Source: Tubulanus polymorphus
Lineage: Eukaryota > Animalia > Nemertea
Assembly: GCF_964204645.1 (NCBI RefSeq)
Contig: NC_134030.1
Location: 13,882,656-13,946,655 of the forward strand
Length of the DNA stretch: 64,000 bases
Direction: 5' to 3'
The translations under genes were made by a program, and so were the position numbers. Under the pieces are notes generated by a model. That model saw only the letters and a list, made by a program, of their open reading frames with translations, was not told where the DNA came from and ran no database searches. Every line of letters starts with the position of its first letter. The first letter of the stretch is position 1. This document shows positions 10,810 through 36,731 of this stretch, one piece after another.

Positions 10810-10835
10810 TTATTTAGTAAAAAAAAATTACGTAT

Positions 10836-11056
10836 TCATATAGGAGGAATATATTTTTGTTTTTCCAAATAATCAATTGTTAAATTAGATAAAGTAACTG
10901 CCAACGTTAATTTTGAAATATCATTTATTTCAAATTTATCAACATTAACACTTCCCATTTTAAATACTTTTTTAATACCATTGTATAACCAACAGTTCCA
11001 ACTGATAGTAAGGCACCATTATATAATCCATTTATTATCCACTTATTATCACTCAT
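10836..11056 (-). pseudogene. Small viral membrane-type protein (frameshifted)
   Basis: MSDNKWINGLYNG..GYTMVLKKVFKM..KLTLAVTLSNLTIDYLEKQKYIPPI*; TAAATG start. Confidence 0.45.
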
Positions 11057-11467
11057 TTATTAATCAAAAAAATACTATCTTCAAAATATTTAGTTAACTT
11101 AGTTATTTAATTATTTCAACATTTATTTCATTACTACTTATTATTATACAGTTATTATTTGTTTAATATCATCAATAATGAAATCTTCATCTAAATCATT
11201 AAATTTTAAAGACTATCTAATTAAATCAGTAATCTTTTCTACATTAAAAGTTTCTTTATTTATTGTTGTTTCATAATCAAATGTTGTTTCATTAAAAAAT
11301 TTAATATTTTTAATATATTACATCATTAATGTTAAATGTCATTTCTTTCTCACGCCATTAATGCATTTTGACTTTCATCTTTTACCTATACTTTAATTTC
11401 ATTTGTGCTATCACTTTTTACAAATCTAATTACAAATTATCATCTCTTCTAATTTTCAACCGTGCTC

Positions 11468-11749
11468 TTAATTAATTTCTTGAGCTAATGTTTCTAAATT
11501 ATATAATGCTGGTTTTAAAATTAGACGAAACCATTTATTTTTATTTCTAATATGAATTAAAAAAGTATTATCTTCAATAGTTTTATCCGTTATATTATAA
11601 AAAGAATTACATAAACTTACATTTACTAATTTCAAACCTACGCAATTCTTAAATTCTCTATCTAATTGTACTAGTAAATTATACGTTTTAGAATTTAACA
11701 GTTTTCTAGAATAAACATATATTCTATATTCTTTTAATTTATCTTGCAT
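11468..11749 (-). CDS. Minor capsid (penton)-like protein, copy 2
   Basis: MQDKLKEYRIYVYS..LVNVSLCNSFYNI..LKPALYNLETLAQEIN; paralogue of 6210-6545 with a shared ~45-bp upstream sequence. Confidence 0.5.
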   Translation of the reverse strand: MQDKLKEYRIYVYSRKLLNSKTYNLLVQLDREFKNCVGLKLVNVSLCNSFYNITDKTIEDNTFLIHIRNKNKWFRLILKPALYNLETLAQEIN

Positions 11750-11767
11750 TTATTTTACATATTTTTT

Positions 11768-12115
11768 TATTCGAAATCTATATCATGGTGCCCTTTTTCA
11801 TTCTTACCTTTGTATATGAAATAGAAATCTCCAGAACATAATCATTCTAAATCTTCACTTGATAATCTATGAAATCTATCTGGTAAATATGTTCTGAATT
11901 TATATTTATTTTCTTTTAATCCTTCATATCTAAGTGGATAACTAATTTATCTCCATATTTGATAGAAACTGTATCAATATTTGTAATTAGATATTTCTTA
12001 TGAATTGTTTATTCTGTTAACTTCTTAAATTTATAATCTACTGATCTAGCATTTGTGATATCTTTTATTCTAGGAATGATTTGTTGTTCTCACTGTGTGC
12101 TTGTTTACTCTCCAT
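11768..12115 (-). pseudogene. Small frameshifted viral ORF of unknown function
   Basis: Manual translation ..YKFKKLTE..KKYLITNIDTVSIKYGDKLVIHLD..RTYLPDRF..FYFIYKGKNEKGHHDIDFE*. Confidence 0.35.
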
Positions 12116-12849
12116 TTTAATAACAAATTTTTAATTAAAATTTGATTAACATGTGATAATTCTTTTCATAATCTCATTCTCTTTTGTTTCTTCTCTTTTA
12201 AACTTTAAGTATTCATCTAAATTACAACCATTAGCAACTCTGTGTATACAATCATCTAAAATATATCTTTTAGGCCAAAAAAGATGCCTTGTTTCTCATC
12301 ACACTTTTGTTTTTTACCATGACGAGGGCGGGCGGTTTTTATTTCTAAGTACTTTTAAAAAAAAGTAGAAATAAAAAGAACTGTTTGAATTTTTTTTGGA
12401 GATGCGGGAGGTGTCTTTTTATTTTTATTATATCAATAAAAATATCCCTCTGACATATTTTCTTCAGATGCGGGAGGTAGTTTTTTATTTTTATTTAACA
12501 GGAAAATCACTGCTTAATCCTAAAAATGATTGGTGAATCCTGAAAATCCATTGCAACACCTTCTACGGTCCTAGAAATATCGGCTTTCAGTAAATCTGGA
12601 CACTCTATATACTTCTCGTGAACGTCACGCATTTCTTCACTAACTGTCAAGTTTGAGTAAGAACCGGCCAACGCATTTTCGAAAAGTTCCATCACTGTTG
12701 ACTTTGGAGATACTTGTAGAATTGGCCAACGTAGTATTGGCTCCTTTTGGAATATTATTTGAACAGATAGCAACATCTTGGACGCTATTAGCACCACATT
12801 TTACCAAGAGAAATCGCTTCGAAATAAGAATCAAGCCAGAAATCAAGTT

Positions 12850-15800
12850 TTAGTTTTATATGAATACATTTAAGATCTAATACCTATAAATTCTATCATT
12901 TCTTCACCACCTAATTCATCTTTGAATTTACCAGGAACTTTTTTATTATCATTGTTAAACAATTCATGATCTTTAGGATAATTACTAAAGTCGAAATGAT
13001 GTTTTAATGGTTTTAAATCATCTGTTATATTATTAGTTTTTATCTTTAATATGTAAGAATCTGTATCAAAATATAAGATTTCTATATGCTTTCCTCCAAA
13101 ATGAGGTTGTAATACGTTATAATAGAATTCATACATTAATAATTTTGATATTTCTAAAACTGATGCTCCAACATAAATTGTTTTATTAAATTTCAAATTC
13201 TCCTAATTTTTACTGCAGCTAAATTTTCATCAAATATTCTGTTACCAATAAATTTAGGATATGTTTGTAAATATCTAATTCTTTTACCATTACTAACTAA
13301 CTCAATATTATTTCTCTTTCTAATATTTCCACAAGTCTTACCATAGAATGCATTCCTCATTAACTTGAAAACATCTTTCTCAAAATCAGTTTTAGCTTTA
13401 GTTCTCTGTTTGGTATATTTTAGGTATAGGTATATTTTATATAGATTGACTCAATGAAATATATCTATGTACTTTTCTTAGAATCATTCCTTGATTCAAA
13501 TAGAATTTTAACATTCTATAATGTACTACATAATTATATTTATCTTCTTGAGTTACCATTAACTTTTCTGTATGAATATGACTTTCAGGTTTAATTCTTT
13601 TTTGATAATTTGATAATTCTTCATGCGTAACAGTTTTATGTTCGGGACAGTATGCTAGATTTCTAGATTTAAATTTTCTATCTTCAGGATATTCCAAGTC
13701 TACAACAAAGAAGCAGCCAGTAACTGAATCATCTGCAATATCTAGAATTATTTTCTTCCAATCAAATTTATCATTATTTTCATGTTGTAAGACTTCAGTT
13801 ATTTCAAATACTCCATAAGGTTGAGGTTCCATCATTGCCCAACCATATAGATTATTTGCATCTATATATAATAACTTATATCCAGGGTTATCATTTACAT
13901 TGAAATATCTATCACCTAATACACCTGAAACTCCTCCTCTTATAGACTTTTCAAACAATAGTAATTGATCTTTATTTGTTTACAAATCCATTTTTATATC
14001 TGTAAATTTTAAACCACAGTCCCAAGTTAAACCTGGTGACGAATAACAATAGCATGGATCAATATCAAAATATTTTAGATTTACATCTCTAAACCTTTCA
14101 AATATATCAGTTAATAATAATACATCTGATTTTAAATATAAATCTACTAATTGTCCATGATTTTTTATTCCAAAATGATTCCAAATATTCAATGTTCTAT
14201 TATAGACTTCATCTTTAACATATTCGTTTTTTAATTCATCATAGAATTGTTCTTTTAATAATTCAGTTATATTGAAATCATTATGATTTTTATAAAATGA
14301 ATATGGAATTGCGCCTTTATATCTCATTAATTGAAAATCATCATTGTTTGGATAGTGTTGTTTTAGTATTTTTAATTCATCATCAACTAATGATTTTGAT
14401 AAATTATCTAATGAACTATTCAAAAATCTATATGAATCTATAAATCTTAGGCATCCAAATTGGAAAGATATATAATTCTCTGATGTTTTAGCTAACATTT
14501 TAAATTTATAAGTTGGTATTTCATCTTTTGATCTATTTGAATTTAATCTTTCTATTTCATCATTGATTTCTTCTATTTTATGACATTTTATGATAAATAA
14601 ATGAGCATCATACCCTGATAAATTATGAAATATAACTGGAACAAAATTGATTCTCTTAGCTTGTAAGTTACAATTCTCATGGGCTGCACCTCTAAATTTT
14701 CCATTCAAATGATCATGATCTCTAACTTTTTTATCTTTGAAATTAAATATCTTTTCACAATAATAACATTTATCTGCAAACTCAAATTCTTCTTTATCTT
14801 TTTCTGTCATTTTAATTTCTATATTAGTATCTAATAGTTTACTAAACTCCATTTCATATTCAATTAATAAGTCACAAAAATGATTGATAACATTCTCATT
14901 TCTATAATCATAATATTCACTTTTAATTAGTACTGGGTAATCAGATTAAATATACAACCCGAAAGCTGCAGCTGATTGATGAATCTGTTTATTTGTATTC
15001 GTTATTAGAGGATCTGAATAATCAATTACATCACTTTCATTAGAATTTAATTTCTTTCTTTCATAATATATTTCTTTTCTATCTTGGTCAGTTAATTCCT
15101 TATTTAGTGATTCAAAATCTACATATATTACAAATGGTACTTAATTCTTGTAATCATATTTTTTGAATTCTAATTTTTTATCCTTTTCATTTGGTAAAAC
15201 TATTTTACAATAATCATGATTTTCACATAATTGCTTATGATTTAATAATGCCCTTTCATTACTGAATTTAGTTATACATTTTCTACATAGATATATTTTA
15301 TTGTGATTATTTTCTGTTCTAAAAAATAAATCTATTTTTTTTATTCCACATATAATGATTTTCATAATATAATATATCTATAACACCATTTGAATCATAA
15401 TCTTTTGATAAATACAAAGGCTCTAATGTAAAATGTTCAATATTATTGCCTTTTGTATTTGGTAATTTGATTAAATCGAATACATTTATTTTTAGATTAT
15501 TATCTCTTTCTATTTTTGGGATATTTTTAATTCTAACAGGATAATTATCTATCTTATAATTATTTTCAAATTGTTTATAATTTGTTAATCTAAAACTATG
15601 TTGTTTATAAACTTCAACTGGGTGTAAGCAACTAATTATTGACCATAGAAAACATTTATCATCTTCATTTTGTACATTTATAACAGCATTAGTTTTAAAT
15701 GGTAGTTTAATATAACTTGATCCATTTATATTATCATCTTTATAATATGATAAATTATTTTCATCTATTGGTTTTGATTTAGTTAACTTATTATATTTTG

Positions 15801-15955
15801 TGTTATAAACATGTTAAGTCATAAATATTATTTCATCAAATGTTAAACCCGATCCTTCAAAATATTTCTCTTCTATTTTACTTTTTATTTCATTATAACA
15901 TTTATTTAATCTATCATCTATATGTTGTTTAGATATGATATGTTGTGAATGAGAA
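12850..15955 (-). pseudogene. Protein-primed family B DNA polymerase (pPolB), central and C-terminal part
   Basis: Motifs in order: GSSYIKLP..VINVQNEDDKCFLWSI; ExoI YVDFES; endonuclease VII-like CYYC..RDHDHLNGKFRGAAHENCN; ExoII FHNLSGYD; ExoIII YLKSDVLLL; motif A YIDANNLYGWAM; motif B KLMRNAFYGK; motif C YFDTDS; PGKFKDE. Several stops and frameshifts. Confidence 0.93.
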
Positions 15956-16871
15956 TTTTTGCAACAGAAACGACCCGAAGACATATTTGGATGAAAAGGC
16001 CAAGCGCCCTAGCTGCTTGACGTTTATTATATACAAAACATAAAAATTAGAAATGTCAAAAACGCCCTTGCTGTTTTTGACGTATACAAAAAAACCATTA
16101 CACACTTATTAACTAATATTTAGACAATGATATTATAAACATAAAATCATAAAATTATGGCCAAAACGCCCTAGCTGTTTTGACCTAGTTATGGAGATGA
16201 ATAATACAGAGTTACGTAATATTAAGACGAAGTCAAACGCCCTAGCTGTTTGACCAAATTAATTAATGAGTCAATACGCCAAAGTGGGCTCAGAAAATGC
16301 CACCAATTCGAAAGGTGCTAAGGAAGGGGATGGTGAGTGGTAAAACGTAACCTTTCACGCTCGGGATGCGGAAGAGAAAGGAACTTGTACTCAACAGTGA
16401 TTGGCTGAGAGAACGAAGAGATATATTGGCGGCGCCACCAGCTGGAGGCGCCTGGCAAAGCGCTCGGTTCGTTTGGGTCGCAAAAATGTTGATGAGCAAT
16501 CGTTACTCGCCCATCTCTTGTTTTTTGCAACAGAAACGACCCGAAGACATATTTGGATGAAAAGGCCAAGCGCCCTAGCTGCTTGACGTTTATTATATAC
16601 AAAACATAAAAATTAGAAATGTCAAAAACGCCCTAGCTGTTTTTGACGTATACAAAAAAAAACCATTACAAACTTATTAACTAATATTTAGACAATGATA
16701 TTATAAACATAAAATCATAAAATTATGGCCAAAACGCCCTAGCTGTTTTGACCTAGTTATGGAGATGAATAATACAGAGTTACGTAATATTAAGACGAAG
16801 TCAAACGCCGTAGCTGTTTGACCTAATTAATTAGTGAGTTAATACGCCAAAGTGGGCTCAGAAAATGCCAC
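15956..16871 (-). repeat. Ngaro 3' terminal repeat block B1-A2-B2
   Basis: A ~345-bp B sequence (gcaacagaaacgacccgaag...gggctcagaaaatgccac) occurs twice, flanking a ~184-bp A sequence that recurs at 20596-20779. Confidence 0.92.
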
Positions 16872-16908
16872 ACAGCCACCCATATGCGGCTGAGCCCACA
16901 GAGACTAT

Positions 16909-17469
16909 CTAGACAGCCTGCCCACGGTGCCGCCTGGTGGAATCTGCGGTACGGTACTGAAAACGAGAGAGTAAGTCCGGTAGAATATTAAAACGGCCTG
17001 GTATATGCTCACTGAGGAAAACAATGTTACATTTCAACCAAATTGATACCCTTTTCCGGACAAGGGTCATCATGGCTCTGTCCCGTGAAGACCGACGATT
17101 GATGACATTAACAACCGCTTGATTGTCAGAATGAAAACATATGGTCTTATTCCGCCATTGCTCCCCTCGAACGGCTAGAGCCGCTACAATTGGGTACAGC
17201 TCTAGGACTGCAATGGAGTAATTTTTCCAACTGGTCGGGCAGGCGCCACTGAACCAATGGGGCCCAAATATAGCCCCGTTTCCCAACGCCCCCGCAGAGT
17301 CGGTATAAAGGTTCAACCGTTCGTTAGTCAATCTCCTGTCGTCTATGAAAAACGACTTGCCGTTGAAGCCTGCGAGAAAAACACGCCAGACGTGGAGATC
17401 TTTTTTGGACTCGGGCGTGAGCGTAACGTGAAATGACTTATGAGGAACGCCGACCGTCAGATCAATCAA
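16909..17469 (-). pseudogene. DIRS/Ngaro-type RNase H domain fused by deletion to a putative gag N-terminus (~17470-17650)
   Basis: LYTDSAG..GAIFGPHWF; IAVLELYPIV; FHSDNQAVV; HIPGRFNILPDLLSR. Confidence 0.88.
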
Positions 17470-17749
17470 TGTGTATTTGCAGCGGTGTTTGCAGGGATAG
17501 CGTTGACCTGGGGTAACAAAGAGACCGCTCTTTCGAGAGTCTCCAGAAGGCGGTCTGCCCTAGCCTCCTTCTCTGAGATAGCCCCAGCTGGCGCTTTCCT
17601 TCACTTGTTTACGGCTGGGGTTGCCTGTTGCTTTCTCTTGTTGCGCTGCATTATTAATTTGACTACCAAAACACAAAATACGTGCGGGTTATTAACCATA
17701 CCAGTATTATGAATAAGACCTGCCTACCACAGGCCCTCTGTGATTATCC

Positions 17750-17930
17750 AACGGGCACCTGGTCAGGAAAATTAAGCCCTATTATTAATTATTATTTCGT
17801 GGGCACCTGCCCAGGAGCAGGAAAAATAAGCCCTAATATTAATGATTATTTCGTGGGCACCATGGCCAGAAGAAGGAAAATTAAGCCCTAATATTAATGA
17901 TTATTTCGTGGGCACCTGCCCAGAAGCAGG
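17750..17930. repeat. 54-bp tandem repeat, left part (~3 units)
   Basis: Unit gtgggcacctgcccagaagcaggaaaattaagccctaatattaatgattatttc. Confidence 0.9.
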
Positions 17931-17931
17931 A

Positions 17932-19584
17932 TAAAGGTCCAATGGCCCTGTGGCTCACCATTAAATCATTGAGTGCATATAATGTCAAAAATATTATACT
18001 AAATATGAATTAATTTGGATTAGAGATGTATGAGGCTGACAATATATGCGCCTGCGGATGCGCGAGAGTGCTGTGTCTACTATTATTGCCTAGTCGCTCA
18101 GGTGATTACTAACACACATACTGTAACCTATATCCCAGCGGATATGAACGCGGCATCTCACTATCAAAGAGCCAGTATCAACAGCAATTTAATTGGTACT
18201 GACAGCTGTAAGTGGTCAAACTCACACTGAGCATCACTGACCCGCTGGATCCCAGCTGCTTGTTACTATGGTTATAGGCAAGAGTGAATAAAGAGAAAAA
18301 CTTTTCCAAACTTACACTAAGAAAATGAAGAAATTAGCAGTGAAAAATCAGTTTTGAAGTCTTGTTGCATTCAAGAGTGAATATTTTCTGAGGATACCAA
18401 AGTCAATGTTTACATTACAAAATGTCAGAACTAATTTCCAAGTTGAAACATTATATTTAGACGGCTAAATAGCAGCACACGACTCACTCACGATGAGATA
18501 ATTTCAGATAATAAGTTAATCCACAAATAGTCGTTATTTGTAAGCATATTGAACATAGTCTAAGCTTAATCGTTGGGTGCATAAAATAAGAAATTAATCC
18601 ACGAAAACTTGAATTTCATGCTTAAATATATTTTAATTAGTAATGTGTTCTTTGAGTATATAGAAATAAAACAAATCCAGAGGAATAAAGATGACCAGGA
18701 TGGGAAAACTTTTAGTATTATTCACTCTTGTTGTATATAGTAGTCGCCTGACCTCAGTTACCTAAGCGACACAGTATTAGATTGACCGCAATGTCACAAG
18801 TCAGAATCCATCCATCGACAAAATGTAAAAAAAAAAAAAAAAAAAAAATTTTGTTTTGGGTTCACATTAGGGGCGTACTCTTTTATGACCTCCGAAGTCT
18901 CCGTCCGAAATCTCCGGTTGGCTCCACACAAAATCCGAATCACACCACCTCGACAGAAAGGAGGTTTCGGAGACTCCAAAAAGTCACGTGACCAATAAAA
19001 GAGTACGATTGGAGGCAAACGGATTCTCCGATCTGATAAAAGAGTTCGCCCTAGGCTTTCCCAATGGGCTTTCCCAATTACATCAGAAACGCCGGAATTC
19101 CCGTATATCCCACAAACAGCCAATCACATTCATTGTAGCTCAGGTTGCAAGGTCAACTCAAATAAATACAAGCAAGGAAATTTAGGGGGTTCATAAAGTG
19201 AGGGCCTGTAGGTCGAAAAGTACATTGAGATCAATCGAACTAAAAACGGCGACACTTCCAGGAAGGATTGAACTTTTATATATTTCAATTCCAAGCATGC
19301 AAATTGTCATACGTAAAAACGTGCCATTACTTAGTGCTTAGGGTTTAGGGTTTAGGTGCTTAGGGTTTTTGCGTGTTTGTCAAGAATAAGTCCCCTAAAA
19401 ATAACTCGATCACCATGAAATTTTTGTGGGCTCGAGAACTCATTAAGCCAAACCATGACACCAAAAATCAACACTATTGGTTCAACAGCCAATGTTTGTG
19501 CCTTGTTGACACACCGGTACTCTATTCATTTTCAATGAAAACTGCTTCATCAGACCGTTTACATAGGCAAACCTACGGTTCGCC
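17932..19584. mobile_element. Composite non-coding insertion (Helentron/HINE-like plus MITE-like pieces) splitting the 54-bp array
   Basis: The array breaks at cagaagcagga and resumes at aaaattaagccc. End hairpin ggcaaacctacggttcgcc (19565-19584), (tttaggg)-like microsatellite at ~19337-19367, internal inverted caagagtgaataa (~18279 and ~18720). Confidence 0.5.
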
Positions 19585-19962
19585 AAAAATTAAGCCCTAA
19601 TATTAATGGTTTTTCGTGGGCACCTGCCCAGAAGCAGGAAAATTAAGCCCTTATATCAATAATTATCTCGTGGGCACCTGCCCAGAAGCAGGAAAATTAA
19701 GCCCTAATGTTAATGATTATTTCCTGGGCACCTGCCCAGAAGCAGGAAAATTAAGCCCTAATATTAATGACTATTTTCTGGGCACCTGCCCAGAAGCAGG
19801 AAAATTAAGCCCTAATATTAATGATTATTTCGTGGGCACCTGGCCAGAAGCAGGAAAATTAAGCCCTAATATTAATGATTATTTTGTGGGCACCTGCCCA
19901 GAAGCAGGAAAATTAAGCCCTTACATTAATGGTTATTTCGAGGGCACCTGCCCAGAAGCAGG
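19585..19962. repeat. 54-bp tandem repeat, right part (~7 units)
   Basis: Same unit as 17750-17930; translates as (GTCPEAGKLSPNINDYFV)n. Confidence 0.92.
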
Positions 19963-19964
19963 AC

Positions 19965-20516
19965 CGATATAGTTTCATATTGCCCTGTTTGTTCAAGTGA
20001 ACTAGATCCCCACCATACAGATTATATCTAGAATTCCAAAACCCCCGATGCCGCCAGGAAAATATCTTTTCGCACCCTGTGCAAGCGGCGTGCAGGAATT
20101 CCTGCACTTGTCCAACCCTACTATTCCCAGTAATTTCGTTAAAACTGCGCCATCTCTGGCGGCGAATAGGGTCACATATATACACAACAGCGCCTGTACG
20201 CTCGACAATAGCATTAGCGTATTGGAAATGTTCATCCCAACAAGCGCTGGGGTCAGATACCGGTTATCTAGGTCGTTCGACCCAATCTGTAGCAAACTAA
20301 TGTAGGCCGCTGCTAGCAGATCAATGAGAGCATATCACGGTTTGTCAACATGTCTATAGTTGCTCCCCCAATACCGATCGAATGAGGCGCCGTAAAATCT
20401 AAACCAGCTAGATCCCAATCGGAATTAACAATAGAGGAAGCACAACTATTCTCCCTCACAAAATCACCCAGGCGCATTATATAACTATGGCCTACGACTA
20501 CAATGTTCTTAGACAT
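19965..20516 (-). pseudogene. SGNH/GDSL hydrolase ORF of the Ngaro element (frameshifted)
   Basis: Block I IVVVGHSY, block II GIGGAT, block III LQIGSND, block V DLVHLN, spread over three frames. Confidence 0.82.
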
Positions 20517-20779
20517 CCTATCTAAAAGTTCTGGTATACAAAAATATCGGATGAGTACGTAAAAAAAGGATAATCAACGATAAGAAAAGAAGAAATAAAA
20601 CGTAACCTTTCACGCTCGGGATGCGGAAGAGAAAGGAACTTGTACTCAACAGTGATTGGCTGAGAGAACGAAGAGATATATTGGCGGCGCCACCAGCTGG
20701 AGGCGCCTGGCAAAGCGCTCGGTTCGTTTCGGTCGTAAAAATGTTGATGAGCAATCGTTACTCGCCCATCTCTTGTTTT

Positions 20780-21408
20780 ATATTATATGTTGGTTTATCT
20801 TCAGATTCTAAAAATTTAACTTTAGAAGATATGCTAATTTTAGGGTATTCTACGTCTGTAATTATTTCTATAATATTTTTCATATTTTCTAAATGTTTTT
20901 TATTTTCTTCTAATGTTTTGCCTTTATGAAATTTAAATTCAGTAGCAGCTGGACCAATATCACTTTTAAATGCTTCAGTTATCTCTATTTCTTTTTTATT
21001 ATCTAATGAATTAATATAATTTCTAACATCTTCCATGTATGGCCTTTTATTGTTTATTTTATTTTTTATTCTTTTAATTGTCTTCTGTTTCTTATCTTTA
21101 TCTTTATCAAAATAATCTTCACCTAAAATATCATTATTAATATTTCTAATATGACTTTTAGATTTTAAATGTTGTTCATAATATCTTTTTTCACTGAATG
21201 ATTGATTACATGTATCACATTTGTATGTTTCTTTTTCAATCTTCAATTCCTCTAATTTATTTTCAAATATATCATCTTTATATTCTAAGTTTAATCTATT
21301 TTCTAAGTGAGATTTAGTTTTATTGTGTCTTGCTTTTTGAGATTTATCTATATTAATTTTACATGTTGGACAGTAGTACTTCTTATTTGCTTCCATTTTA
21401 ATATCCAA
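20780..21408 (-). pseudogene. pPolB N-terminal region with two C2H2-type zinc fingers
   Basis: YYCPTC..RHNKTKSH and YKCDTC..QHLKSKSH. Removing the Ngaro insert joins PTYNIK (20780) to NSHSQHIISKQH..EGSG (15955) in one frame. Confidence 0.85.
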
Positions 21409-21466
21409 TTTTTTATTAAAATTGATTTTAGAAGTTATTCATATTCATATATATGAATATTTGAAG

Positions 21467-21587
21467 AGTAATCGGGATAATAGGGGTTCAGGTCAAAGGC
21501 TGAAAGGTCTAAAATTAATTCGAGTGAGCGAGAATTTATTTTTCGACCTTTCGACCTTTGGCTTGAACCCCTATTATCCCTATTACT
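21467..21587. repeat. Self-complementary right terminus of the Polinton-like element
   Basis: agtaatcgggataataggggttcaggtcaaaggctgaaaggtc...gacctttcgacctttggcttgaacccctattatccctattact forms an imperfect 121-bp hairpin. Confidence 0.85.
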
Positions 21588-21645
21588 TCTATCTATGTCA
21601 ATGTATTATGTATAATTTCCAAACTATTTCTCATCTTAATGTAAG

Positions 21646-25061: not shown

Positions 25062-25725
25062 AGGGAGAGAATGGCCAAGGAAAAATGGCAAAGGAAAAAA
25101 TGGCCAGGAAAAAATGGCCAATGAAGGTATTTTTGCCTAGGAAAAATTGTCAAGGAAAAATGGCCACGGAAAAAAGGCCAAGGAAGATTACATAGAAAAC
25201 TAACCATCATTTCATTGACATACAAGAAATCAAATGCATTGCTGTTTTGACATGTCACTTTTTGAGATTATTAGACCTATTCCTGGATTAGTTGACTGAG
25301 TAAATTTTGATGAGCATATCTCACCTCGATATTATCACTACACTACACCAGTTTGCTATATAAATTACCGCACAATTTCAATGCACTTACCTTTGATAAG
25401 ACAGTCTGTGCCCTAATAGCTTACTCAGATGTTTTGAAATACTAATTTAGTTAATTTATTAAGTTTAAGTTTATCACTATTAAGTTTATCCATTGCCCAC
25501 TTGCATGATAGTTCTTTCGTGATAGTTCTTTACATATATTCATTATATTCAATGAAATAAAATGTAAGTTCATCAAATTTCTGAACTCATTATACCGAAT
25601 TTGATTGTTTCGAGCCTCATGAAAAACGAATGATGTCATTAAATTGAGAGCTTAATGTTTATTAACATTGTCAGTAGTTCTCATAAATTTTCCTTGGCCA
25701 TTTTTTCTTGGCCATTTTTTCCTAC
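25062..25725. mobile_element. MITE-like element with repeated subterminal motif
   Basis: Tandem atggccaaggaaaaa motifs at 25070-25185 and their reverse complement at 25688-25722. Confidence 0.55.
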
Positions 25726-26266: not shown

Positions 26267-27214
26267 ATGGCTGGAGTTGATAAAACAGTAAAACCACCTA
26301 TAAAAGCAAACGGAAAAAAGCAGAAACTAGCACTTCCGGCGACTCAACATCATCAACCTCATCAAATGCGAGAACTCCCAAGAGGTCGAACCGCCCACTA
26401 TCGATGAATTCGACAATGACGACGTATTTTCAAGTTCCGATAAATCCATTGGTGACGAACTATTTGAAGTTAGAATCTCAGAAGCTCTAAATAGCCCGCA
26501 TGTGCAAAAGATTATACAAACAATTGTCGATTCAATTCTTACAACGTTTAAGCGGGAAACGAAAACTATCATAAATGATAAATTCGACAAATTCGACGCA
26601 TTTTTATTTGATATGAATAAAAAACAGGATGAACTTAAACATAGTGTCGACACCATGATCGAATCCTGTAAAAACTCAATCGACGAATTAACAACAAAAT
26701 GTCGTGCAATAGATAAGTCACTTTCAGACGTCGATTACAGACTCTCGGCAAATGATGCGTACTACGAAGAATTAGATATGTACACTAGAAGAAACTCTAT
26801 CCGTATTTTTGGACTCAACGAACTTCCAGACGAAAATCCGCTTGAAAAATGTACGAAATTTTTTTCAAAGACTCCCTGAACATTGATATCAATCCGTGTG
26901 GCATCGACCGAGCGCATCGAATAGGAAAACCATCTAGAGACCCACGTGTTCCGAGACAAATGATCGTCAAATTCTTGCGTCATACCGACAGAGAGCTGGT
27001 TATCAAGCAGCGTAGAAAAATAAAAGGATCCAAAACTAGTATCTCTGAGGATTTAACCCGCGGCAGAGCTCAATTCCTGAAGTACCTGAACAAACATCAA
27101 GCGGTTTCAGCATCATGGTCGAATGACGGTAAAATTATGGCCATCATTAACAACATGAAACACCATCTTAGTGGTTATGCAGATTTTGATGAGATATTGA
27201 ATCGTGTATCCTAG
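26267..27214 (+). pseudogene. LINE ORF1 (coiled coil + RRM/CTD), frameshifted
   Basis: ELDMYTRRNSIRIFGLNE; IDRAHRIG; PRQMIVKF; ISEDLT; SWSNDGKI. Confidence 0.88.
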
Positions 27215-27504
27215 TTTGATTAATCCTGTCAAATCATAATTCCTTGATAACAATTATTATTTAGCATTTTAAAATTATGTAGGAGGAGCTAATCCTTTCA
27301 TATGCTCGTGGCTTTAGTTACTCGGTATGGTTTATTGCTAATAGTATGTGCTGTGATCACCAATTTTTTACATCGTCATTTTTCTTTGTTTACATTGATT
27401 TTTTTGTGTATACATATGCGTACTTTGTTCATAATGAGCTAAATTTATTATGTAACGGTGAGTGCCGTCGAAGTATTACTATCACGCTTCAATTCCACTA
27501 GCAG

Positions 27505-28833
27505 ATGGCCAGTCATGCACATCCTGAGTTTATCGTAGGTTCAAGTAGAAAATATTATAAGGATTTAACGCAATTATCAAAGTTTGGATTATCAAACTTC
27601 TCCTTGTTTCATCTAAATATAAGGAGCTTTAATAAGAATTTTGAGAATTTGCAATTATATTTACACTCCCTCTGTTTCAATTTTGGGATCTTAGCTCTTA
27701 CTGAAACGTGGACTAAACTTCAACATGACAACAAGTCAATGTATAATTTGCCTGATTATGAGTCGATTTTCATAAGTAGACAGGATTCACGTGGTGGTGG
27801 AATAGCGATGTTTGTCCACAACACCATTAGATTTAGGGTACTGGATGATTTTACATGTGTAAATGACACTTTCGAAAGTTTATTTATAGAAATCCAATGA
27901 CCACATAATATGTCAAAACATATTGTTGGCACTATCTATCGACCGCCTGATGCAAGTGTCAATAACTTTAATACTGATTTTCTACCACTCTTAGAAAACT
28001 TAACTAGAACAGGGCGTAAGTGCTTCATATTGGGCGATTTCAATATAGATCTTTTCAACGCCGGCTCTCATAAACCGACTGGAGATTTCATTTTTAATAT
28101 GCTCTCAACTGGTTTTACGAATTTAATAGATAAGTCAACACGAGTAACCGACAGATCTTCGACTCTTATTGACAATATATATTCAAACTGTTATTCTAGT
28201 TTCGATGCAATTTCAGGGATACTGATCAATGATTATTTGACCACTTTCCAATGTTTGCAATTTTGCCGGAAATCAAAGTCAACCATACATCAACTAGGAC
28301 ACTTAGTTATCGAAAAATGTCAGATCATGATATCGCTCGATTTAAACGAAAGCTAATTGCACATGATTGGACTCATGTGTTTAATATTCATGATGTTTAT
28401 GTTGCCTATAACTCTTTTTATGATGTATTCTATAAATACTACACGGAATGTTTCCCTATAATCAATAGAAAGTTTTCGGTATATAGGGACAAGAAACACG
28501 GATCGTTTTCTAACGGTTTATTGATTTCTTTAAAAAAGAAGGATTCTCTTTATAGAAGATACCTGTCTAGTAAACTTCAAACTGACAGAGATATCTACAA
28601 TAGATATAGAAACGTTTTTAATACTTGTATCAAAAAGGCTAAAAGGCTTCACTATAACTCTATGTTAAACAATGCGAGAGAGCCCAAGGAAACCTGGAAA
28701 ATAATTAATGACCTTTTTAATAGAAAATCATCAAATTCTAAATTTCCTGATGTTTTTGAAAAATAATGTTAGTATGGCCAATGAATTTAATAAGTGTTTT
28801 GCACAAGCGGGTCCAAATCTAGCTAATGATATT
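27505..28833 (+). pseudogene. LINE ORF2 5' part: apurinic-like endonuclease and linker
   Basis: HLNIRS; LALTETW; RGGGIAMFV; IYRPP; ILGDFN; LIDNI; ends FNKCFAQAGPNLANDI at the insertion. Confidence 0.92.
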
Positions 28834-29286
28834 AGTAATAGGGGTAATGGGCTTTCATACCAAAGGTCGAACGGTCGAGCTCGTAAAAAATGAAAATAAC
28901 AATAATTTCCAGTTGAATTAGTCGCGAAACTCATAAAAAATGAAAAATAATTCTCACACACTCGAATTTATTTTTCATTTTTACTCGCTAGAAAAAAGTG
29001 TGAGTAAAGTGTGAGTGAAATAAATTCGAGCGTGTGAGAATTATTTTTCATTTTTTATGAGTTTCACTCCTAATTCAAGTAGAAATTGTTATTATTTTCA
29101 TATTTTTCATTTTTTACTCACTCGCCCGTTCAACCTTTAACCTGAAAGCCGATTACCCCTATTACTCTTAAAATATTCATATACATGAATAAAATATATA
29201 TGAATAACATATAAATTGATAGATTATTCAATATGAAAGTGTGAGTGAAATAATTCATATTTAAAACATTGAATATTTATATTTGA

Positions 29287-29937
29287 ATGAGTTTTAATAA
29301 AAATTTTGTTATAAAAATGAAGAAAGAAGAAGAAGAACCCAACTTTAAAATCGAAATCAATGAAACCAATAAATCATTTTCATTATTTAACATTAAAAAT
29401 TATATTTCAGCAACAAATTTAGTGTCCGCAAGACATTATAAAATCGATAACATAACTATGATTAATCAAATATTATCAAATGAAACTTATTTAATTACTG
29501 AACTTGTAGATACTTTTGATAATGGCGTTAAAAATCCTAAAATATTTAATACAGTTTTAAAATTAAAAGGAATTTTAGATGAAAACATAATAAATATTCT
29601 TAAAACTCCTTTCAATGAAGGAAATGATGATATAATACTTTCAAAAAATTACAATGATTTGATTAATTTAAGAATTGAAAAAAGACAATTATATTATTTC
29701 AATTTTGATAATAAACAAATTATCTATAATGAAAATTCATCAAATATTGGAATTCAATGTGAATTAGATAATGAAAAATCATTTAAAGATATTGCAGTTC
29801 AATGTAATTTAGATGATGAATTTAGAAAAATCAATCCTAATGAAAAAGTGCATTGTTATTGCGGAGGTAAATATTTAAAATCACATAAATCAAAGCATTA
29901 TGAAACAATTAAACATAAAAACTGGCGTAAAGAGTAA
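29287..29937 (+). CDS. Hypothetical protein with C-terminal CxC..H..H zinc-finger-like motif
   Basis: Intact 216-aa AT-rich ORF; EKSFKDIAVQCNLD..NPNEKVHCYCGGKYLKSHKSKHYETIKH. Confidence 0.65.
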   Translation: MSFNKNFVIKMKKEEEEPNFKIEINETNKSFSLFNIKNYISATNLVSARHYKIDNITMINQILSNETYLITELVDTFDNGVKNPKIFNTVLKLKGILDENIINILKTPFNEGNDDIILSKNYNDLINLRIEKRQLYYFNFDNKQIIYNENSSNIGIQCELDNEKSFKDIAVQCNLDDEFRKINPNEKVHCYCGGKYLKSHKSKHYETIKHKNWRKE

Positions 29938-29989
29938 CAATTCTACATTATAATTATTGAATTGAGTTAAATGATTTAAATATCTAATA

Positions 29990-30600
29990 GACTGTTAAAA
30001 TGATAAATTGTTTGACAGTTAAAATGATAAATTGTTTGACAGTTGAAATGATAAATCGTTTAACAGTTAAAATGATAAATTGTTTGACAGTTAAAATGAT
30101 AAATTGTTCGACTGTTGAAATGATAAATTGTTTGACAGTTGAAATGATAAATTGTTTGACAGTTGAAATGATAAATTGTTTGACAGTTGAAATGTTAAAC
30201 TGTTTGACAGTTGCAATGTTAAATTGTTTGACAGTTGAAATGTTAAATTGTTTGACAGTTGAAATGTTAAATTGTTTGACAGTTGAAATGATAAACTGTT
30301 TGGCAGTTGAAATGATAAATTGTTTGACAGTTGAAATGATAAATTGTTCAACTGTTGAAATGATAAGACAGTTGAAATGATAAATTGTTTGAGAGTTGAA
30401 ATGATGAATTGTTTGACAGTTGAAATGATAAATTGTTTGGCAGTTGAAATGATAAATTGTTTGGCAGTTGAAATGATAAGACAGTTGAAATGATAAATTG
30501 TTCTACAATTGAAATGATAAATTGTTTGACAGTTGGAATGATAAATTGTTTGACTGTTGAAATGTTAAATTGTTAGACTGTTGAAATGTTAAGTTGTTTG
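29990..30600. repeat. 24-bp minisatellite, left arm
   Basis: (gttgaaatgataaattgtttgaca)n, about 25 units. Confidence 0.95.
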
Positions 30601-30724
30601 GCTGTAAATTTAATTGTTATTTGATTTAATCATTTAAAAGTTTAATATTTTTAAAATGATTATAAAATATTTAATTAAAAACTAGCAAATATTTTATAAA
30701 CTGTTTAATTTTTCTCTTAAATAA

Positions 30725-30943
30725 ATGCATGGTTTCATTCCAACTGGGAAAAGTGATTTGAAACACTATTTAGTAGTTGGAGGATTAATATTGGTTGCGC
30801 TTTTCTTTTATTATGAAAATATCAGTAAGGATTTGATTAATGAAAATATGAAATTGAGCAAGAAATTATAGAAGTTAATTGGAAACAATCACAGAAAGAA
30901 TAACAATAAAAAAGTTAATTTAGAAAATGATTTAGAGGATTAA
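30725..30943 (+). pseudogene. Small TM/coiled-coil ORF A, left copy with one in-frame stop
   Basis: Inverted paralogue of 32944-33162; TAG at ~30868. Confidence 0.6.
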
Positions 30944-30978
30944 AACAGCATCTTTTAATTTAATTTATTCTATATATT

Positions 30979-31296
30979 TTGACTATAAAAATGAGTGAAA
31001 ATAAGGTATTAGAAATATTACATCTAATATATAAAAATCAACAGAATATTAAATCAATTATTATGATTTCAGGTTTATTTTCATTCTCAGTTTATACTAT
31101 AAAACAGTTGTTAGAATTCTATGATTGCTGTAAAATTAGATACACTGAATTAATAGAAAATATGAATTATATTTCAGATAGATTGAATAATATTAAATAC
31201 TGTGAAATATGCAATAAAAGATATAAAAATAAAAAATCATTAAGGAATCACATGTATATTCATGAACTTGATGAAAAATTATATGAATCAAAATAA
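30979..31296 (+). CDS. Small ORF B: hydrophobic segment + C2H2 zinc finger, left copy
   Basis: IIMISGLFSFSVYTI..CEICNKRYKNKKSLRNHMYIH; probable ATG at 30991. Confidence 0.7.
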   Translation: MTIKMSENKVLEILHLIYKNQQNIKSIIMISGLFSFSVYTIKQLLEFYDCCKIRYTELIENMNYISDRLNNIKYCEICNKRYKNKKSLRNHMYIHELDEKLYESK

Positions 31297-31580
31297 GAAA
31301 TCGACTGTTAAATTAGCTGAAAATATAAAATTTATTAGTTGAAATGTATGAAAATAAAAGTTAATAAAAAAGGGGGTTGAGGTATCAATGTATTAGATAC
31401 CCTATTAGATACCCTAATACCTACCTATGTATTAGATACCCTATTAGATACCCTAATACCTAAAACCCTTTTTTTATTAACTTTTATTTTATACAATTTT
31501 CAACCAATTTATTTTTATTTTTTCAAATAATATATGAATAAATTAAAGAATAACAAAGGTTCAAAATTATTACTTAGGCA

Positions 31581-32224
31581 TATTAAATACGTATTAATGG
31601 TATTAAATACATATTATGCTTTATTTCTGAAAATGAAGTAACAGAAGTAATTTATGTTTTAATTCATTCAAGTATGATATTGTAAATTCTTTACATTTGA
31701 CTATTATAATACAAGAGTGATATTAGTTAGTTGGCTTATTCAATAAGAGAAACAATGAAATAATACAAGAGTGATACTAACAGTTAAAGTTATTGAATTT
31801 CTTGTTAAATCTATTTGAATTCTAGTCAATTCTTGTTAACCAATAGCGTGAATAGAAATCAAAAAGATTTAAATAAAAAAACAATAAGTTACTTTATCTA
31901 ATACTAACTTATTTAACTTATTGTTTTTTTATTTAAATCTTTTTGATTTCTATTCACGCTATTGGTTAACAAGAATTGACTAGAATTCAAATAGATTTAA
32001 CAAGAAATTCAATAACTTTAACTGTTAGTATCACTCTTGTATTATTTCATTGTTTCTCTTATTGAATAAGCCAACTAACTAATATCACTCTTGTATTATC
32101 CTAGTCAAATGTAAAGAATTTACAATATCATACTTGAATGAATTAAAACATAAATTACTTCTGTTACTTCATTTTCAGAAATAAAGCATAATATGTATTT
32201 AATACCATTAATATGTATTTAATA
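31581..32224. repeat. Central long palindrome (311-bp arms, 22-nt loop)
   Basis: 31581-31891 is the reverse complement of 31914-32224 with about 3 mismatches. Confidence 0.93.
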
Positions 32225-32591
32225 CCATTAATACGTATTAAATACGTATTTAATACATTGATACCTCAACCCCCTTTTTGGTTAACTAATATTTCATACA
32301 ATATTTCATACATTTTAGCTAATTTAACAGTCTTATTCGTGATTTATTTCATTTAGTTTATGAATATACAATGTACACAATTTAATACTTAAACAGTTAA
32401 ACAATCTAGCGTAAGAATCCAAGAAATCTTACTTTCTTGGCAAGAATCTTACTTTCTTACTCGTACGTCTAGTACATAGATATATAAATTAGTTTTTATA
32501 AAAATCATAGATATAAATTATTAATCTAAATATAGAAATAGTTATAATATTATCTATTTTTATATTTTCAACCAATTTAACAGTCTTATTC

Positions 32592-32909
32592 TCAATTTGA
32601 ATTATGAAATTTCTCATCTAATTCATGAATATACATGTGATTTCTCAAACTCTTTTTATTTTTATATCTTTTATTACATATTTCACAGCATTTAATATTA
32701 TTTATTCGATCTGATAGATAATTTATATTTTCATTCAATACTGTATATCTAATTGTACAGCTATCATAGAATTCTAACAACTGTTTTATAGTATAAACTG
32801 AGAATGAAAATAAACCTGAAATCATAATAATTGATTTAATATTCTGTTGATTTTTATATATTAGATGTAATATTTCTAATACCTTATTTTCACTCATTTT
32901 TATAGTCAA
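32592..32909 (-). CDS. Small ORF B: hydrophobic segment + C2H2 zinc finger, right copy
   Basis: First 49 aa identical to 30979-31296, diverged middle, same finger. Confidence 0.7.
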   Translation of the reverse strand: MTIKMSENKVLEILHLIYKNQQNIKSIIMISGLFSFSVYTIKQLLEFYDSCTIRYTVLNENINYLSDRINNIKCCEICNKRYKNKKSLRNHMYIHELDEKFHNSN

Positions 32910-32943
32910 AATATATAGAATGAATTAAATAAAAGATGCTGTT

Positions 32944-33162
32944 TTAATCCTCTAAATCATTTTCTAAATTAACTTTTTTATTGTTATTCTTTCTGTGGTT
33001 GTTTCCATTTAACTTCTTTAATTTCTTGCTCAATTTTATATTTTCATTAATCAAATCCTTACTGATATTTTCATAATAAAAGAAAAGCGCAGCCAATATT
33101 AATCCACCTGCTACTAAATAATGTTTAAAATCACTTTTCCCAGTTTGGATGAAACCATCCAT
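32944..33162 (-). CDS. Small TM/coiled-coil ORF A, intact right copy
   Basis: MDGFIQTGKSDFKHYLVAGGLILAALFFYY..; TAAATG start. Confidence 0.65.
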   Translation of the reverse strand: MDGFIQTGKSDFKHYLVAGGLILAALFFYYENISKDLINENIKLSKKLKKLNGNNHRKNNNKKVNLENDLED

Positions 33163-33289
33163 TTATTTAAGAGAAAAATTAAACAGTTTATAAAATATTT
33201 GCTAGTTTTTAATTAAATATTTTATAATCATTTAAAAAATATTAAACTTTTAAATGATTAAATCAAATAACAATTAAATTGACAGCCAA

Positions 33290-33937
33290 ACAATTAAACA
33301 TTTCAACAGTCTAACAATTTATCATTTCAACTGTCAAACAATTTATCATTTCAACTGTCAAACAATTTATCATTTCAACTGTCAAACAATTTATCATTTC
33401 AACTGTCAAACAATTTATCATTTCAACTGTCAAACAATTTATCATTCAACTGTCAAACAATTTATCATTTCAACTGTCAAACAATTTATCATTTCAACTG
33501 TCAAACAATTTATCATTTCAACTGTCTTATCATTTCAACAGTCGAACAATTTATCATTTCAACTGTCCTATCATTTCAACATTCGAACAATTTATCATTT
33601 CAACTGTCAAACAATTTATCATTTCAACTGTAGAACAATTTATCATTTCAACTGTCAAACAATTTATCATTTCAACAGTTGAACAATTTATCATTTCAAC
33701 AGTCGAACAATTTATCATTTCAACGGTCGAACAATTTATCATTTCAACTGTCAAAAAATTTATCATTTCAACTGTCAAACAATTTATCATTTCAACTGTC
33801 AAACAATTTATCATTTCAACTGTCAAACAATTTATCATTTCAACTGTCAAACAATTTATCATTTCAACTGTCAAACAATTTATCATTTCAACTGTCAAAC
33901 AATTTATCATTTCAACTGTCAAACAATTTATCATTTC
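33290..33937. repeat. 24-bp minisatellite, right arm (inverted)
   Basis: (tgtcaaacaatttatcatttcaac)n. Confidence 0.95.
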
Positions 33938-33942
33938 ATGCT

Positions 33943-34035
33943 AAACAATTCATGATCTTTAGGATAGTTACTGAAATCAAAATGATGTTTTAATGTTTTT
34001 AAATCATCAGTTATGTTATTAGTTTTTATCTTTAA
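33943..34035 (-). pseudogene. 93-bp pPolB fragment inside the 6.3-kb element
   Basis: Matches 12957-13049 with 7 mismatches (LKIKTNNITDDLKxLKHHFDFSNYPKDHELF). Confidence 0.9.
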
Positions 34036-34633
34036 AATGTGTTATGATATTTTGATTTAAGATGGTGTGATTTATTGCTTCGAGTATAATATTTTCCACA
34101 ATTACATAAAACGCTTTCATTAGGATTATATTTAGGCGCAACAATTTCATTATCTAAATTACATTGAATTCCAACATCTTTATATGATTTTTCATTTGGA
34201 ATGTCAGGGATAAATCTCTTTTCTTGTAATCTGAAAAACATAACATAGCATTCTCTGAATGGGCAATAACGTAAGTGTGAAAATAATGTTTTATGTGAAT
34301 TTTCATTATTAAAAAGTGATTGAATTTCATCTGTAATTATTAAATGTTTATCTATTCCATCAAATGTTGTGAATTTTGGAATTATTGTATTGAGTAAGAT
34401 TTTATCTTTATCATTCGATAACTCTATTATCAGATAATGATTTTAAACACTAATTCAGTAATATTTTTCACTTGAAAACGAAGACGCGCAGTTTTAATCA
34501 AATCTTTAATAAGAATGAAATTTTTAATTGTAAAATATTTTTCTAATTCATTTAAATCGATATCTTTGAAATGTAGTATCTGTTCATTCATATTTATAAG
34601 TAATTTTGTTATCAAAATTGATATTTTCATCAA
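34032..34633 (-). pseudogene. Diverged, frameshifted paralogue of ORF 29287-29937
   Basis: EKSYKDVGIQCNLD..NPNESVLCNCGKYYTRSNKSHHLKSKYH at the mirror position. Confidence 0.65.
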
Positions 34634-35138
34634 CTCGTTAATTACTCGTTACTTTTAAACATAGAATAAGAATTTAACGCATATAAATATAAATATTCAC
34701 TGTTTTAAATATGAATTATTTCACTCGTTAATTACTCGTTACTTTTTATATTGAAAATAAGAATTTAACGCATATAAATATGAATATTCAATGATTTATA
34801 TATAAATTATTTCAATCACACTTTACTAACACTTTTAATGTTTAAAAATCTAACTCTTACAAATATAAATATTGAAATAATGTTTAAAATATATCTATAT
34901 ATCTATTCTATAAGAGCTCACACTTTTATATTGAATAATCTGTCAATTTAAATGTTATTCATGTATATGAATATTTTAAGAGTAATAGGGGTTTAGTTGT
35001 TTCATATCAAAGGTTGAAGGGGCGGGTGAGTAAAAAATAAAAAATAAATTCGAGTGTGCGAGAATTTATTTTTTATTTTTTTACTTTCCAACCTCTCGAC
35101 CTTTGGTATGAAAGCCCATTACCCCTATTACTGATATT

Positions 35139-36731
35139 TTGCCTACTAACAAAACATTTTTCTCTTTTCTGGGTCCTCCACAACATAATAATATCTTTTT
35201 CTCTCCCACAGATTCTTTAGAAATTGAAAATATTGTTTCAAAATTTAAAAATAGTAATAACACTGGTCATGATGGTATCAATCAAAAGATCCTCAAGAGA
35301 GTTATTGACGCTATATCTCGGCCGTTAGCTCATATTTTAAATCTAAGTTTGACTAATGGGCAAGTACCTGAATCCTTCAAAATATCTAAGATATTACCTT
35401 TGTTCAAATCTGGAGATGTTTCACATTTTTCAAACTACAGACCAATATCAATACTCCAATGTATTTCCAAGATCTTTGAAAAAGTAGTTTACAAAAGAGT
35501 TATAAGTTTTTTGGACAAGTATAAAATACTATCTCCATGTCAATTTGGATCTAGAAAAGACCATTCCACCAACATGGCTATTACTGTTATCATAGATAAA
35601 ATTATCAATAATTAAGACAATGGCAAATCAACTATAGGAATATTTTTAGACCTTTCGCGTGCATTTGATACAGTGAATCATAAAATTCTATTGTCTAAAC
35701 TTTGCCATTATGGCATCAGAGATACGCCATTACTCTGGTTTAGAAACTATCTTTCAAACCGTTTTCAGACTGTTCTTTTTAAAGAGACTACTAGCACTAC
35801 CTATCCTGTATTCTGTGGAGTGCCTCAATGATCTATTTTGGGGCCGATCCTTTTCTTATTATATATAAATGACCTTGCAAACGCATCAAGCATTTTTAAT
35901 CTTATCATGTTTGCTGATGATGCCAATGTATTCACTTCTCATGTCAATATTAATGAGTTAACTATAATAGTAAATACAGAACTACACAAACTGAATATCT
36001 GGTTTCGGGCAAACAGGCTTTCATTGAATTTGAAAAAGACTCATTTCATGTTTTTCAAACGTGCTAAACATAAACACTCAATTTCTATCAAAATCAACAA
36101 TATGTCTATATCACAAGTCTCGACAACAAAATTTCTAGGCGTTCAAGTTGACGACCAGCGTACTTGGAAGTCACACATTAATAGCATCTCTACTAAACTA
36201 TCACGGTTCATTGGTATAATGGGTAGTCTTTATGGAATTTTGTCAAAAACAACTTTACTGCAGATGATATATTATTCTTTCATTTATTGCCATCTCACCT
36301 ATTGTAATATTGTATGGGGTTATACTTATCCTTCAAACTTAAGAAAGCTTGGACTTCTCCAGAAGAAAGCGGTCCGCATTATCTTTAAAACTGATTTTAG
36401 AGCCCATACCTCACCTTTATTTAAGTCTGCAAAAATTCTTAAATTGGCAGATATATTGAACAATTTTCAAATTGGACAATTCATGTATCTATATGTCAAT
36501 AACAAGTTACCTGAGATGTTCAATAATATTTTTAAGCCGAATGAAGTTGGATACAACACTAGAAACAGCAACAACATCCGCCCTGACTCATTCAAATCAA
36601 ATCTAAAACGTTTTTCAATATAAGTCAACGGTCCAAATATTTGGAATATTATGAATGATTCAATTAAAAACTCCCCTTCTATTGAACGTTTCAAAAATCG
36701 AACAAAAAACCTTTTACTTTCTCATTATTAA
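35139..36731 (+). pseudogene. LINE ORF2 3' part: reverse transcriptase
   Basis: NYRPIS; QFG; FLDLSRAFDTV; GVPQ*SILGP; FADD; KFLGV; YCNIVWG; continues in frame from ..NLANDI. Confidence 0.93.

Follow-up and report, generated by a model that had tools for sequence, protein, structure and literature searches.

A stretch of 64,000 nucleotides from the nemertean Tubulanus polymorphus (NC_134030.1, positions 13,882,656 to 13,946,655 of the forward strand; hereafter the window) contains at 28834-35132 a 6.3-kb element that has the ends of a Polinton and is built in mirror fashion about its own centre. The locus raises the question of what such an element is and how it is copied and spread. The original prediction regarded it as a satellite of a Polinton-like virus, mobilised in trans, whose single strand would fold into one hairpin of about 3 kb. 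Our analysis supported the first part: the element is non-autonomous and multi-copy, its Polinton-type ends are homologous to those of elements encoding a family B DNA polymerase that is protein-primed (pPolB), and one of its genes, open reading frame (ORF) B, is under purifying selection. The single 3-kb hairpin was overstated. Since the element has Polinton ends without enzymes of its own, it likely hitch-hikes on autonomous Polintons, and it is likely one integrated copy of a multi-copy, mirror-built element that is mobilised by an autonomous Polinton of the same genome. We consider it probable that it belongs to a family of non-autonomous fold-back Polinton satellites, with at least one gene of its own, which is copied and integrated in trans.

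Insertion of the element as a single unit

The boundaries were placed as follows.

28828..28833, no strand, left target-site duplication GATATT (comparison of both flanks)
28834..28870, plus strand, left 37-bp terminal inverted repeat (TIR), beginning AGT (inverted-repeat match and reads with unlike flanks)
35096..35132, minus strand, right 37-bp TIR (inverted-repeat match)
35133..35138, no strand, right target-site duplication GATATT (comparison of both flanks)
28251..36623, plus strand, host long interspersed nuclear element (LINE) with an ORF2 bearing reverse transcriptase, split by the element (reading-frame continuity)

The outermost 37 bases at the two ends are inverted repeats without a mismatch, and the element is flanked by GATATT on either side, for which the chance at a fixed place is 0.0007. 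The ORF2 frame of the LINE is open up to the left junction and picks up again past the right one, and in contigs of the host LINE family the match ends exactly at 28833. Taken together, the TIRs, the duplication and the uninterrupted LINE frame on either side indicated that the element was inserted as a single unit, and the predicted 37-bp TIRs, 6-bp duplication and precise LINE interruption were thus all borne out. The GC content is 21-24% in the interior of the element versus 32-40% in the flanks. The predicted AGT..ACT signature is present in modified form: the termini read AGTAAT..ATTACT, one base off (AGT)2, and are a variant of the first of the two Polinton end motifs, (AGT)2//(ACT)2 and (AG)3//(CT)3, given in the accessible text of the published descriptions. 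A decayed Polinton-like element elsewhere in the window (the neighbour) and a metagenomic relative (L004), both described below, start identically.

Graded mirror layout

Inward from each end, the modules are a hairpin, ORF1, a 24-bp minisatellite, ORF A, ORF B, an inner hairpin and the central palindrome. The non-coding modules, without assigned strand, are the following.

28834..29166, left terminal hairpin of 333 nt, outer TIR plus inner inverted copy (fold -107 kcal/mol, z -20)
34981..35132, right terminal hairpin of 152 nt, outer TIR plus inner inverted copy (fold -40 kcal/mol, z -9.7)
29990..30600, left 24-bp minisatellite, 26 units (repeat detection)
33287..33938, right 24-bp minisatellite, 28 units (repeat detection)
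31309..31534, imperfect inner hairpin (72%), the loop of which contains a 39-bp repeat (repeat detection and alignment)
31529..31574, 46-bp patch common to a higher-copy sequence (loose-ended reads)
31581..32224, central palindrome with 311-bp arms and a 22-nt loop at 31892-31913 (alignment of the arms)
34633..34849, 91-bp tandem repeat of the region upstream of ORF1-right (repeat detection)

The central 311-bp palindrome and the minisatellite in both arms were found as predicted. Identity between the arms falls outward, from 308/311 (99%) at the centre through 98% in the spacers beside A and 94% in A to 91% in B. Alignment was weak in the stretch from B to the centre (52% of columns) and in the outer arms, where the outer 1.1 kb is patchy (61% of columns). 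Inverted alignments across the centre cover 75% of positions, and those with at least 85% identity cover 61%. Each end folds on itself, and the first arm of the inner hairpin (31253-31400) has a counterpart across the centre at 32246-32370. The near-complete palindrome of the original prediction therefore does not hold: with such a graded mirror, the fold of a single strand would branch, its inner stem being perfect, rather than extend as one 3-kb rod.

At the two borders of the 46-bp patch (31529 and 31574), 262 and 128 loose-end reads were counted, with agreement of 0.97 and 0.94, and the other sequence diverges on both sides. Open frames of 126 codons within the minisatellites were rejected as genes, since they most likely arise from the repetition itself. 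The minisatellite's opening decamer is found again at three sites around the centre (31303, 32323 and 32576), these being its only occurrences in the window apart from the arrays, and it is a candidate binding site. The element had no match in Rfam.

Genes of the element and selection on ORF B

Each arm carries copies of three small genes.

29287..29937, plus strand, ORF1-left, 216 aa, intact (ORF list; C-terminal CxC..H..H zinc-finger-like motif read by eye)
34032..34630, minus strand, ORF1-right, distant paralogue of ORF1-left, frameshift near 34430 (protein alignment)
30725..30943, plus strand, ORF A left, premature stop at codon 49, N-terminal hydrophobic segment (ORF and alignment)
32944..33162, minus strand, ORF A right, 72 aa, intact (ORF and alignment)
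30991..31296, plus strand, ORF B left, 101 aa, hydrophobic segment and one C2H2 finger (ORF list, Pfam)
32592..32897, minus strand, ORF B right, 101 aa, intact (ORF list, Pfam)

The predicted presence of A and B in both arms was confirmed (30725-31296 and 32592-33162). For the predicted zinc-finger ORF the agreement was partial, as ORF1 lies on each side in the form of distant paralogues, the right one frameshifted. The two copies share 47% identity over the last 57 aligned residues, at the C-terminus (E 2e-16), and the score of the N-terminal piece was reached by 5 of 2000 shuffles. A Pfam search with seven ORFs of the element, the longest of 216 aa, returned only C2H2, with no significant match for ORF1-left.

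Between the arms, B differs at 30 nucleotides and 12 amino acids. When the same mutation spectrum was placed at random sites, 22.7 amino-acid differences were expected, and none of 20,000 simulations gave a value as low as that observed. The dN/dS comparison that the original prediction had suggested gave 0.25. We concluded that B is a real gene under purifying selection, and its copies have likely diverged under such selection within the satellite lineage. The differences are clustered, with none over 30967-31125 and 33 differing columns over 31126-31302, which indicated that the arms are mosaics.

At least three full-length homologues of B (60, 37 and 34% identity, finger ligands retained) were found with HMMER among the 150 of 733 matches listed; the other matches among these covered the finger region only. 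All three homologues lie on contigs of about 1 kb, without gene context. One prokaryote match was rejected, as it spans the finger only. Word-index protein searches returned nothing for B or ORF1-left, and when viral contigs were scanned at the protein level, pPolB, B and ORF1 were all without a relative. No homologue of ORF1 was found in the protein searches run (word index, ESM Atlas and viral contigs), the ESM Atlas giving only zinc-finger look-alikes, at 0.91 or below. A single-sequence fold prediction of ORF1 was unusable, with a predicted local distance difference test score of 34.

In the large element at 4100-21600, nothing truly matched the element's ORFs (best E 0.044), in line with the predicted absence of these small ORFs from it. 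Among 40 pPolB-bearing metagenomic loci, which are partial sequences, there was no match to A or B and one weak match to ORF1 (E 0.008), to another zinc-finger protein. Since both the neighbour and the 40 loci are partial, the proposed search of autonomous Polintons was answered only for these sequences, and absence of ORF1, A and B from autonomous elements is not established. As a lead only, the N-terminus of ORF1 resembled a small ORF upstream of the L004 pPolB at a score reached by 9 of 2000 shuffles, uncorrected. The likeliest guess is that A, B and ORF1 are DNA-binding or membrane-linked accessory proteins that favour copying or spread of the satellite.

Homologous ends in a pPolB-encoding clade

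Two pPolB sequences in the window bear on the origin of the element.

12149..21587, minus strand, decayed Polinton-like neighbour, extending to about 4130 (terminal hairpin at 21467-21587, then pPolB from 21396 to 12149)
33928..34040, minus strand, 113-bp pPolB fragment in the right arm, pointing inward (about residues 1193-1226 of a 1365-aa relative)

The neighbour's pPolB is split by a retrotransposon insertion at 15956-20779. The neighbour is related to the presumed helper but is not that helper; decayed as it is, its end is 84% like the element's over 45 nt. A piece of its pPolB had 1256 relatives at E <=1e-20 among 3245 candidates, and a metagenome scan yielded the 40 loci, with L001, L002, L004 and L005 among the relatives. 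In L004 the pPolB is intact and has an AGT..ACT hairpin upstream, and the TIR of L005 is 88% like that of the element over 34 nt. When eight end sequences from the element, the neighbour, L004 and L005 were aligned, 17 of 67 columns were invariant. L001, whose pPolB is 79% identical to the neighbour's at the DNA level, encodes an rve integrase (E 6.5e-9), so an integrase of this clade is a plausible source of the element's integrase signature.

The predicted hairpin ends are present on both sides of the element. They are not specific to it, however: in the polymerase-encoding members (21467-21587 of the window; 190-446 of L004), the end is likewise a self-complementary hairpin with an inner inverted TIR copy. 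By these end sequences, terminal hairpins are a trait of the clade, autonomous members included, rather than of the satellite. The assignment for L004 rests on direct comparison of the ends; a scan for AGTA..TACT hairpins, weak by itself, matched 1 of 41 loci (L004) versus 4 matches in 80 shuffled loci. We found no description of clade end hairpins with an inner TIR copy in the accessible parts of the literature. Reads of the terminal hairpin showed many loop-length variants. Exact patterns of the TIR and the minisatellite unit had no match in viral contigs, and a degenerate TIR pattern had none in metagenome contigs. A possible capsid ORF of the neighbour had no sequence match in PDB, so that the word virus for the helper rests on knowledge of the family.

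The fragment in the right arm is 88% identical in nucleotides, and in 26 of 28 amino acids, to the large element's pPolB. It derives from near the C-terminus and sits where the left arm has a 50-bp spacer, with a few bases shared with its neighbours at both junctions. This 113-bp match proves that the element once recombined with a pPolB-encoding element or descends from one, and it fits either a template-switch patch or a double deletion. The claim that no polymerase, integrase or capsid is encoded thus needs amendment for this fragment; otherwise it stands, with no Pfam match beyond C2H2 in the seven ORFs and no match to the L001 integrase in the window.

Copy number and insertion sites from reads

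Raw reads of run X5 (1934 Mb, same species label) come from a study separate from that of the four of ten listed runs that contain part of the stretch, all four from one study. Mapping covered 27000-29985 and 30545-33340. At the left end (28834), 1771 and 415 reads leave the element into unlike flanks with an agreement of 0.34-0.35, whereas agreement at the four internal loose ends listed for X5 was 0.67-0.91. Such low agreement indicated many insertion sites. Mean depth was 1000-2500 in the hairpin, about 409 in ORF1, 170 at the junction of ORF1 and the minisatellite, 196 in A and 169 in B (two arms summed), 73 in the palindrome (two arms) and 68 in the loop bin. For an assumed genome of 0.3-2 Gb, this corresponds to 63-423 copies of ORF1, 26-203 of A or B, and 6-70 elements with this centre. 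The junction depth matches that of A and B, as expected of one travelling cassette, and contig pieces join the minisatellite to A and A to B (records 9, 11 and 17). Every bin of the centre, the loop included, was at multi-copy depth. The element is accordingly not the single copy that the original prediction had set against the satellite, given the diverse flanks at 28834 and the multi-copy depth in every mapped part. Multiple insertion sites were shown for ends and parts, not for whole copies.

Comparison with known systems

Snap-back or copy-back defective genomes of adenovirus and adeno-associated virus, and hairpin derivatives of yeast linear plasmids, are symmetric about a central palindrome through fold-back during strand displacement. 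Their arms are near-identical and they are transient, whereas the element has old, mosaic, paralogous arms, is heritable and multi-copy, and carries a selected gene. A recent snap-back with identical arms was rejected, as 99% identity is confined to the inner 311 bp, with 91% in the cassette and 61% of columns in the outer arms.

Non-autonomous Polinton derivatives resemble the element in retaining their ends, having lost their enzymes and presumably being mobilised in trans; the kind is reportedly known from Repbase and from Kapitonov and Jurka in 2006. Tlr1 encodes its own integrase. It is sometimes viewed as a non-autonomous Polinton and encodes a helicase, according to the accessible text of one review (PMC5499653). 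The accessible portions of the literature on non-autonomous Polintons describe no mirror layout, hairpin ends or duplicated selected genes. Full-text searches gave no title or abstract dealing with Polinton satellites that are palindromic or carry genes; such elements may be described in subscription papers, Repbase Reports and supplements.

With autonomous Polintons or Mavericks, as far as the accessible parts of the sources describe them (PMC8097293, PMC3014272, 10.1101/2023.08.22.554363), the element shares the 6-bp duplication, TIRs with AGT..ACT ends, ends homologous to the pPolB/rve clade, and the pPolB fragment. It is 6.3 kb long versus the 13-25 kb given for them in the accessible text of the last of these; unlike them it has no pPolB, integrase, ATPase, protease or capsid genes, and it has the mirror layout, internal palindrome and minisatellites. 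Transpovirons, from the accessible text of PMC5499653, are similar as linear TIR-bounded DNA of about 7 kb without capsid genes, dependent on a virus and with a small zinc-binding gene. They differ in carrying a superfamily 1 helicase fused to an inactive pPolB and in riding in mimivirus particles, whereas the element has no helicase match and no ORF above 216 aa, and lies in a cellular genome with the marks of Polinton integration. The comparison with transpovirons drawn in the original prediction fails on the helicase gene, and identity with them was rejected on that ground. We concluded that the element is an unusual non-autonomous Polinton, in which the graded mirror layout together with a selected zinc-finger gene in each arm is what is new.

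Weighing of alternative explanations

Several observations weigh against a satellite family. The window contains no integrase, with that of L001 as query, so no helper was shown. Both minisatellites and the right outer arm lie outside the mapped regions. Depth is uneven: ORF1 has twice that of A and B, and the palindrome reaches only about a third of the value expected for two arms per A/B pair. Either the layout is different in many members of the family or the centre was under-sequenced. Only 92 of 4064 reads on the centre are at least 99% alike, which speaks against a uniform family, and among the reads and contigs searched none spans the element and there was no second full copy with its own target-site duplication. 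The diverse flanks could stem from any element with these ends, autonomous ones included. ORF A alone gave no significant signal of selection (P 0.29), and it may have been in an autonomous parent that B was selected.

The main rival is that autonomous Polinton ends bearing ORF1, the minisatellite, A and B as accessory genes, selected in the parent, were joined by deletion or head-to-head fusion and then passively amplified as a non-autonomous family, with the passenger genes decaying. We regard this as possible but doubtful. In its favour, the right arm has the order hairpin, first ORF and pPolB fragment, the fragment lying just where pPolB follows the first ORF in L002 and L004, so that a simple deletion fits as well. 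ORF1 depth (409) exceeds junction depth (170), so over half of the ORF1 copies continue otherwise; two of the six gene copies (left A and right ORF1) are broken; and the arms are old paralogues outside and near-identical at the centre only. Accessory regions beside TIRs are also usual in Mavericks, by the accessible text of PMC8097293. Against it stand the near-absence of these genes from the 40 partial pPolB loci and their absence from the neighbour, and the multi-copy state of the centre itself. The fragment, moreover, is a near-C-terminal piece that replaces a spacer, with short shared sequence at both ends, which a template-switch patch explains equally well.

That the mirror is a one-off local rearrangement, or an artefact of assembly through repeats, is very unlikely. 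The missing spanning record and the scarcity of near-identical centre reads would be in keeping with it, but the arms differ at 9% of sites in a codon-biased pattern not to be expected from duplication of a read path; the TIRs, duplication and LINE frame agree; and all bins of the centre are multi-copy. An assembly artefact was rejected. Foldback elements have long inverted arms with internal tandem repeats, a cut-and-paste transposase and a duplication longer than 6 bp. The element shares the arms and repeats of the FB/Galileo type, yet it differs in its 6-bp duplication, as made by rve integrases (accessible text of PMC12220804), and in its Polinton-type ends, which align with those of pPolB-encoding elements; it also contains the pPolB fragment. 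A foldback-type element with an unrelated transposase and an incidental likeness to Polintons is therefore the least probable of these explanations.

Proposed mechanism

Polintons are copied by a protein-primed polymerase, and their rve integrase leaves 6-bp duplications, as stated in the accessible text of PMC6431247 and PMC12220804. For the fold-back satellite family, the polymerase of a helper could start at either TIR and displace one strand, which might snap back on the central palindrome and the A/B cassette and so restore a duplex origin. This would let the centre be copied again from itself, giving the 99% identity there, and would allow template switches between the arms, leaving identical tracts beside diverged ones. 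A switch onto helper DNA could have produced the pPolB patch. Insertion of the duplex, with its 6-bp duplication, would then fall to the rve integrase of the helper. More tentatively, the element may be a long-lived satellite replicon of an animal Polinton virus, which replicates, integrates and perhaps packages it; its own duplicated zinc-finger genes would be selected, and it would record fold-back and template-switch steps, including the captured patch of helper pPolB.

Other features of the window and of the relatives

A 212-aa zinc-finger ORF proved to be the N-terminus of the neighbour's pPolB (20761-21396 plus 12149-15954), 65% identical to the 1365-aa relative, and no separate gene. 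Downstream of this pPolB lies a small ORF (11766-12141); its position in L002 and L004 is between pPolB and the end. The segments 6264-6563 and 11468-11767 form an 82% direct duplication. At its left the neighbour showed no matching TIR, and no duplication was found for it. In L005 (158-6508), the relative with the closest TIR, pPolB lies directly inside the end; a zinc-finger ORF of 697 aa runs convergently to it, and the region upstream of this ORF is similar to that of ORF1-left (80% over 46 nt).

A frame at 3677-3931, which adjoins on the left the neighbour's AT-rich start near 4130, resembles what we take to be a BEL/Pao gag. The retrotransposon at 15956-20779 has split direct repeats (20596-20779 repeats 16341-16524; 15956-16303 repeats 16522-16871), an RNase H-like frame (16909-17559) and two 54-bp tandem arrays, a layout that is presumably that of an Ngaro/PAT-type DIRS element. 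A 142-bp tandem repeat family (55387-55989), a 219-bp inverted repeat pair of 95% identity (62008-62813) and an element with 14-bp inverted repeats (25070-25723) are probably ordinary host repeats.

Implications for Polinton biology

Polinton replication has so far been inferred from gene content and scarcely observed. A family of fold-back derivatives whose centre is young, whose arms are mosaic and which carries a piece of the helper's polymerase gene would be a natural record of strand displacement and template switching. It would also show which cis signals, a 37-bp TIR and a terminal hairpin, suffice for copying and integration. Surveys that demand core genes or a 15-kb loop between TIRs, as in the accessible text of PMC11131425, would overlook such elements. 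Clade-wide terminal hairpins, autonomous members included, are a second testable feature. Should selection on B act within the satellite, then animal Polintons are themselves host to gene-carrying parasites.

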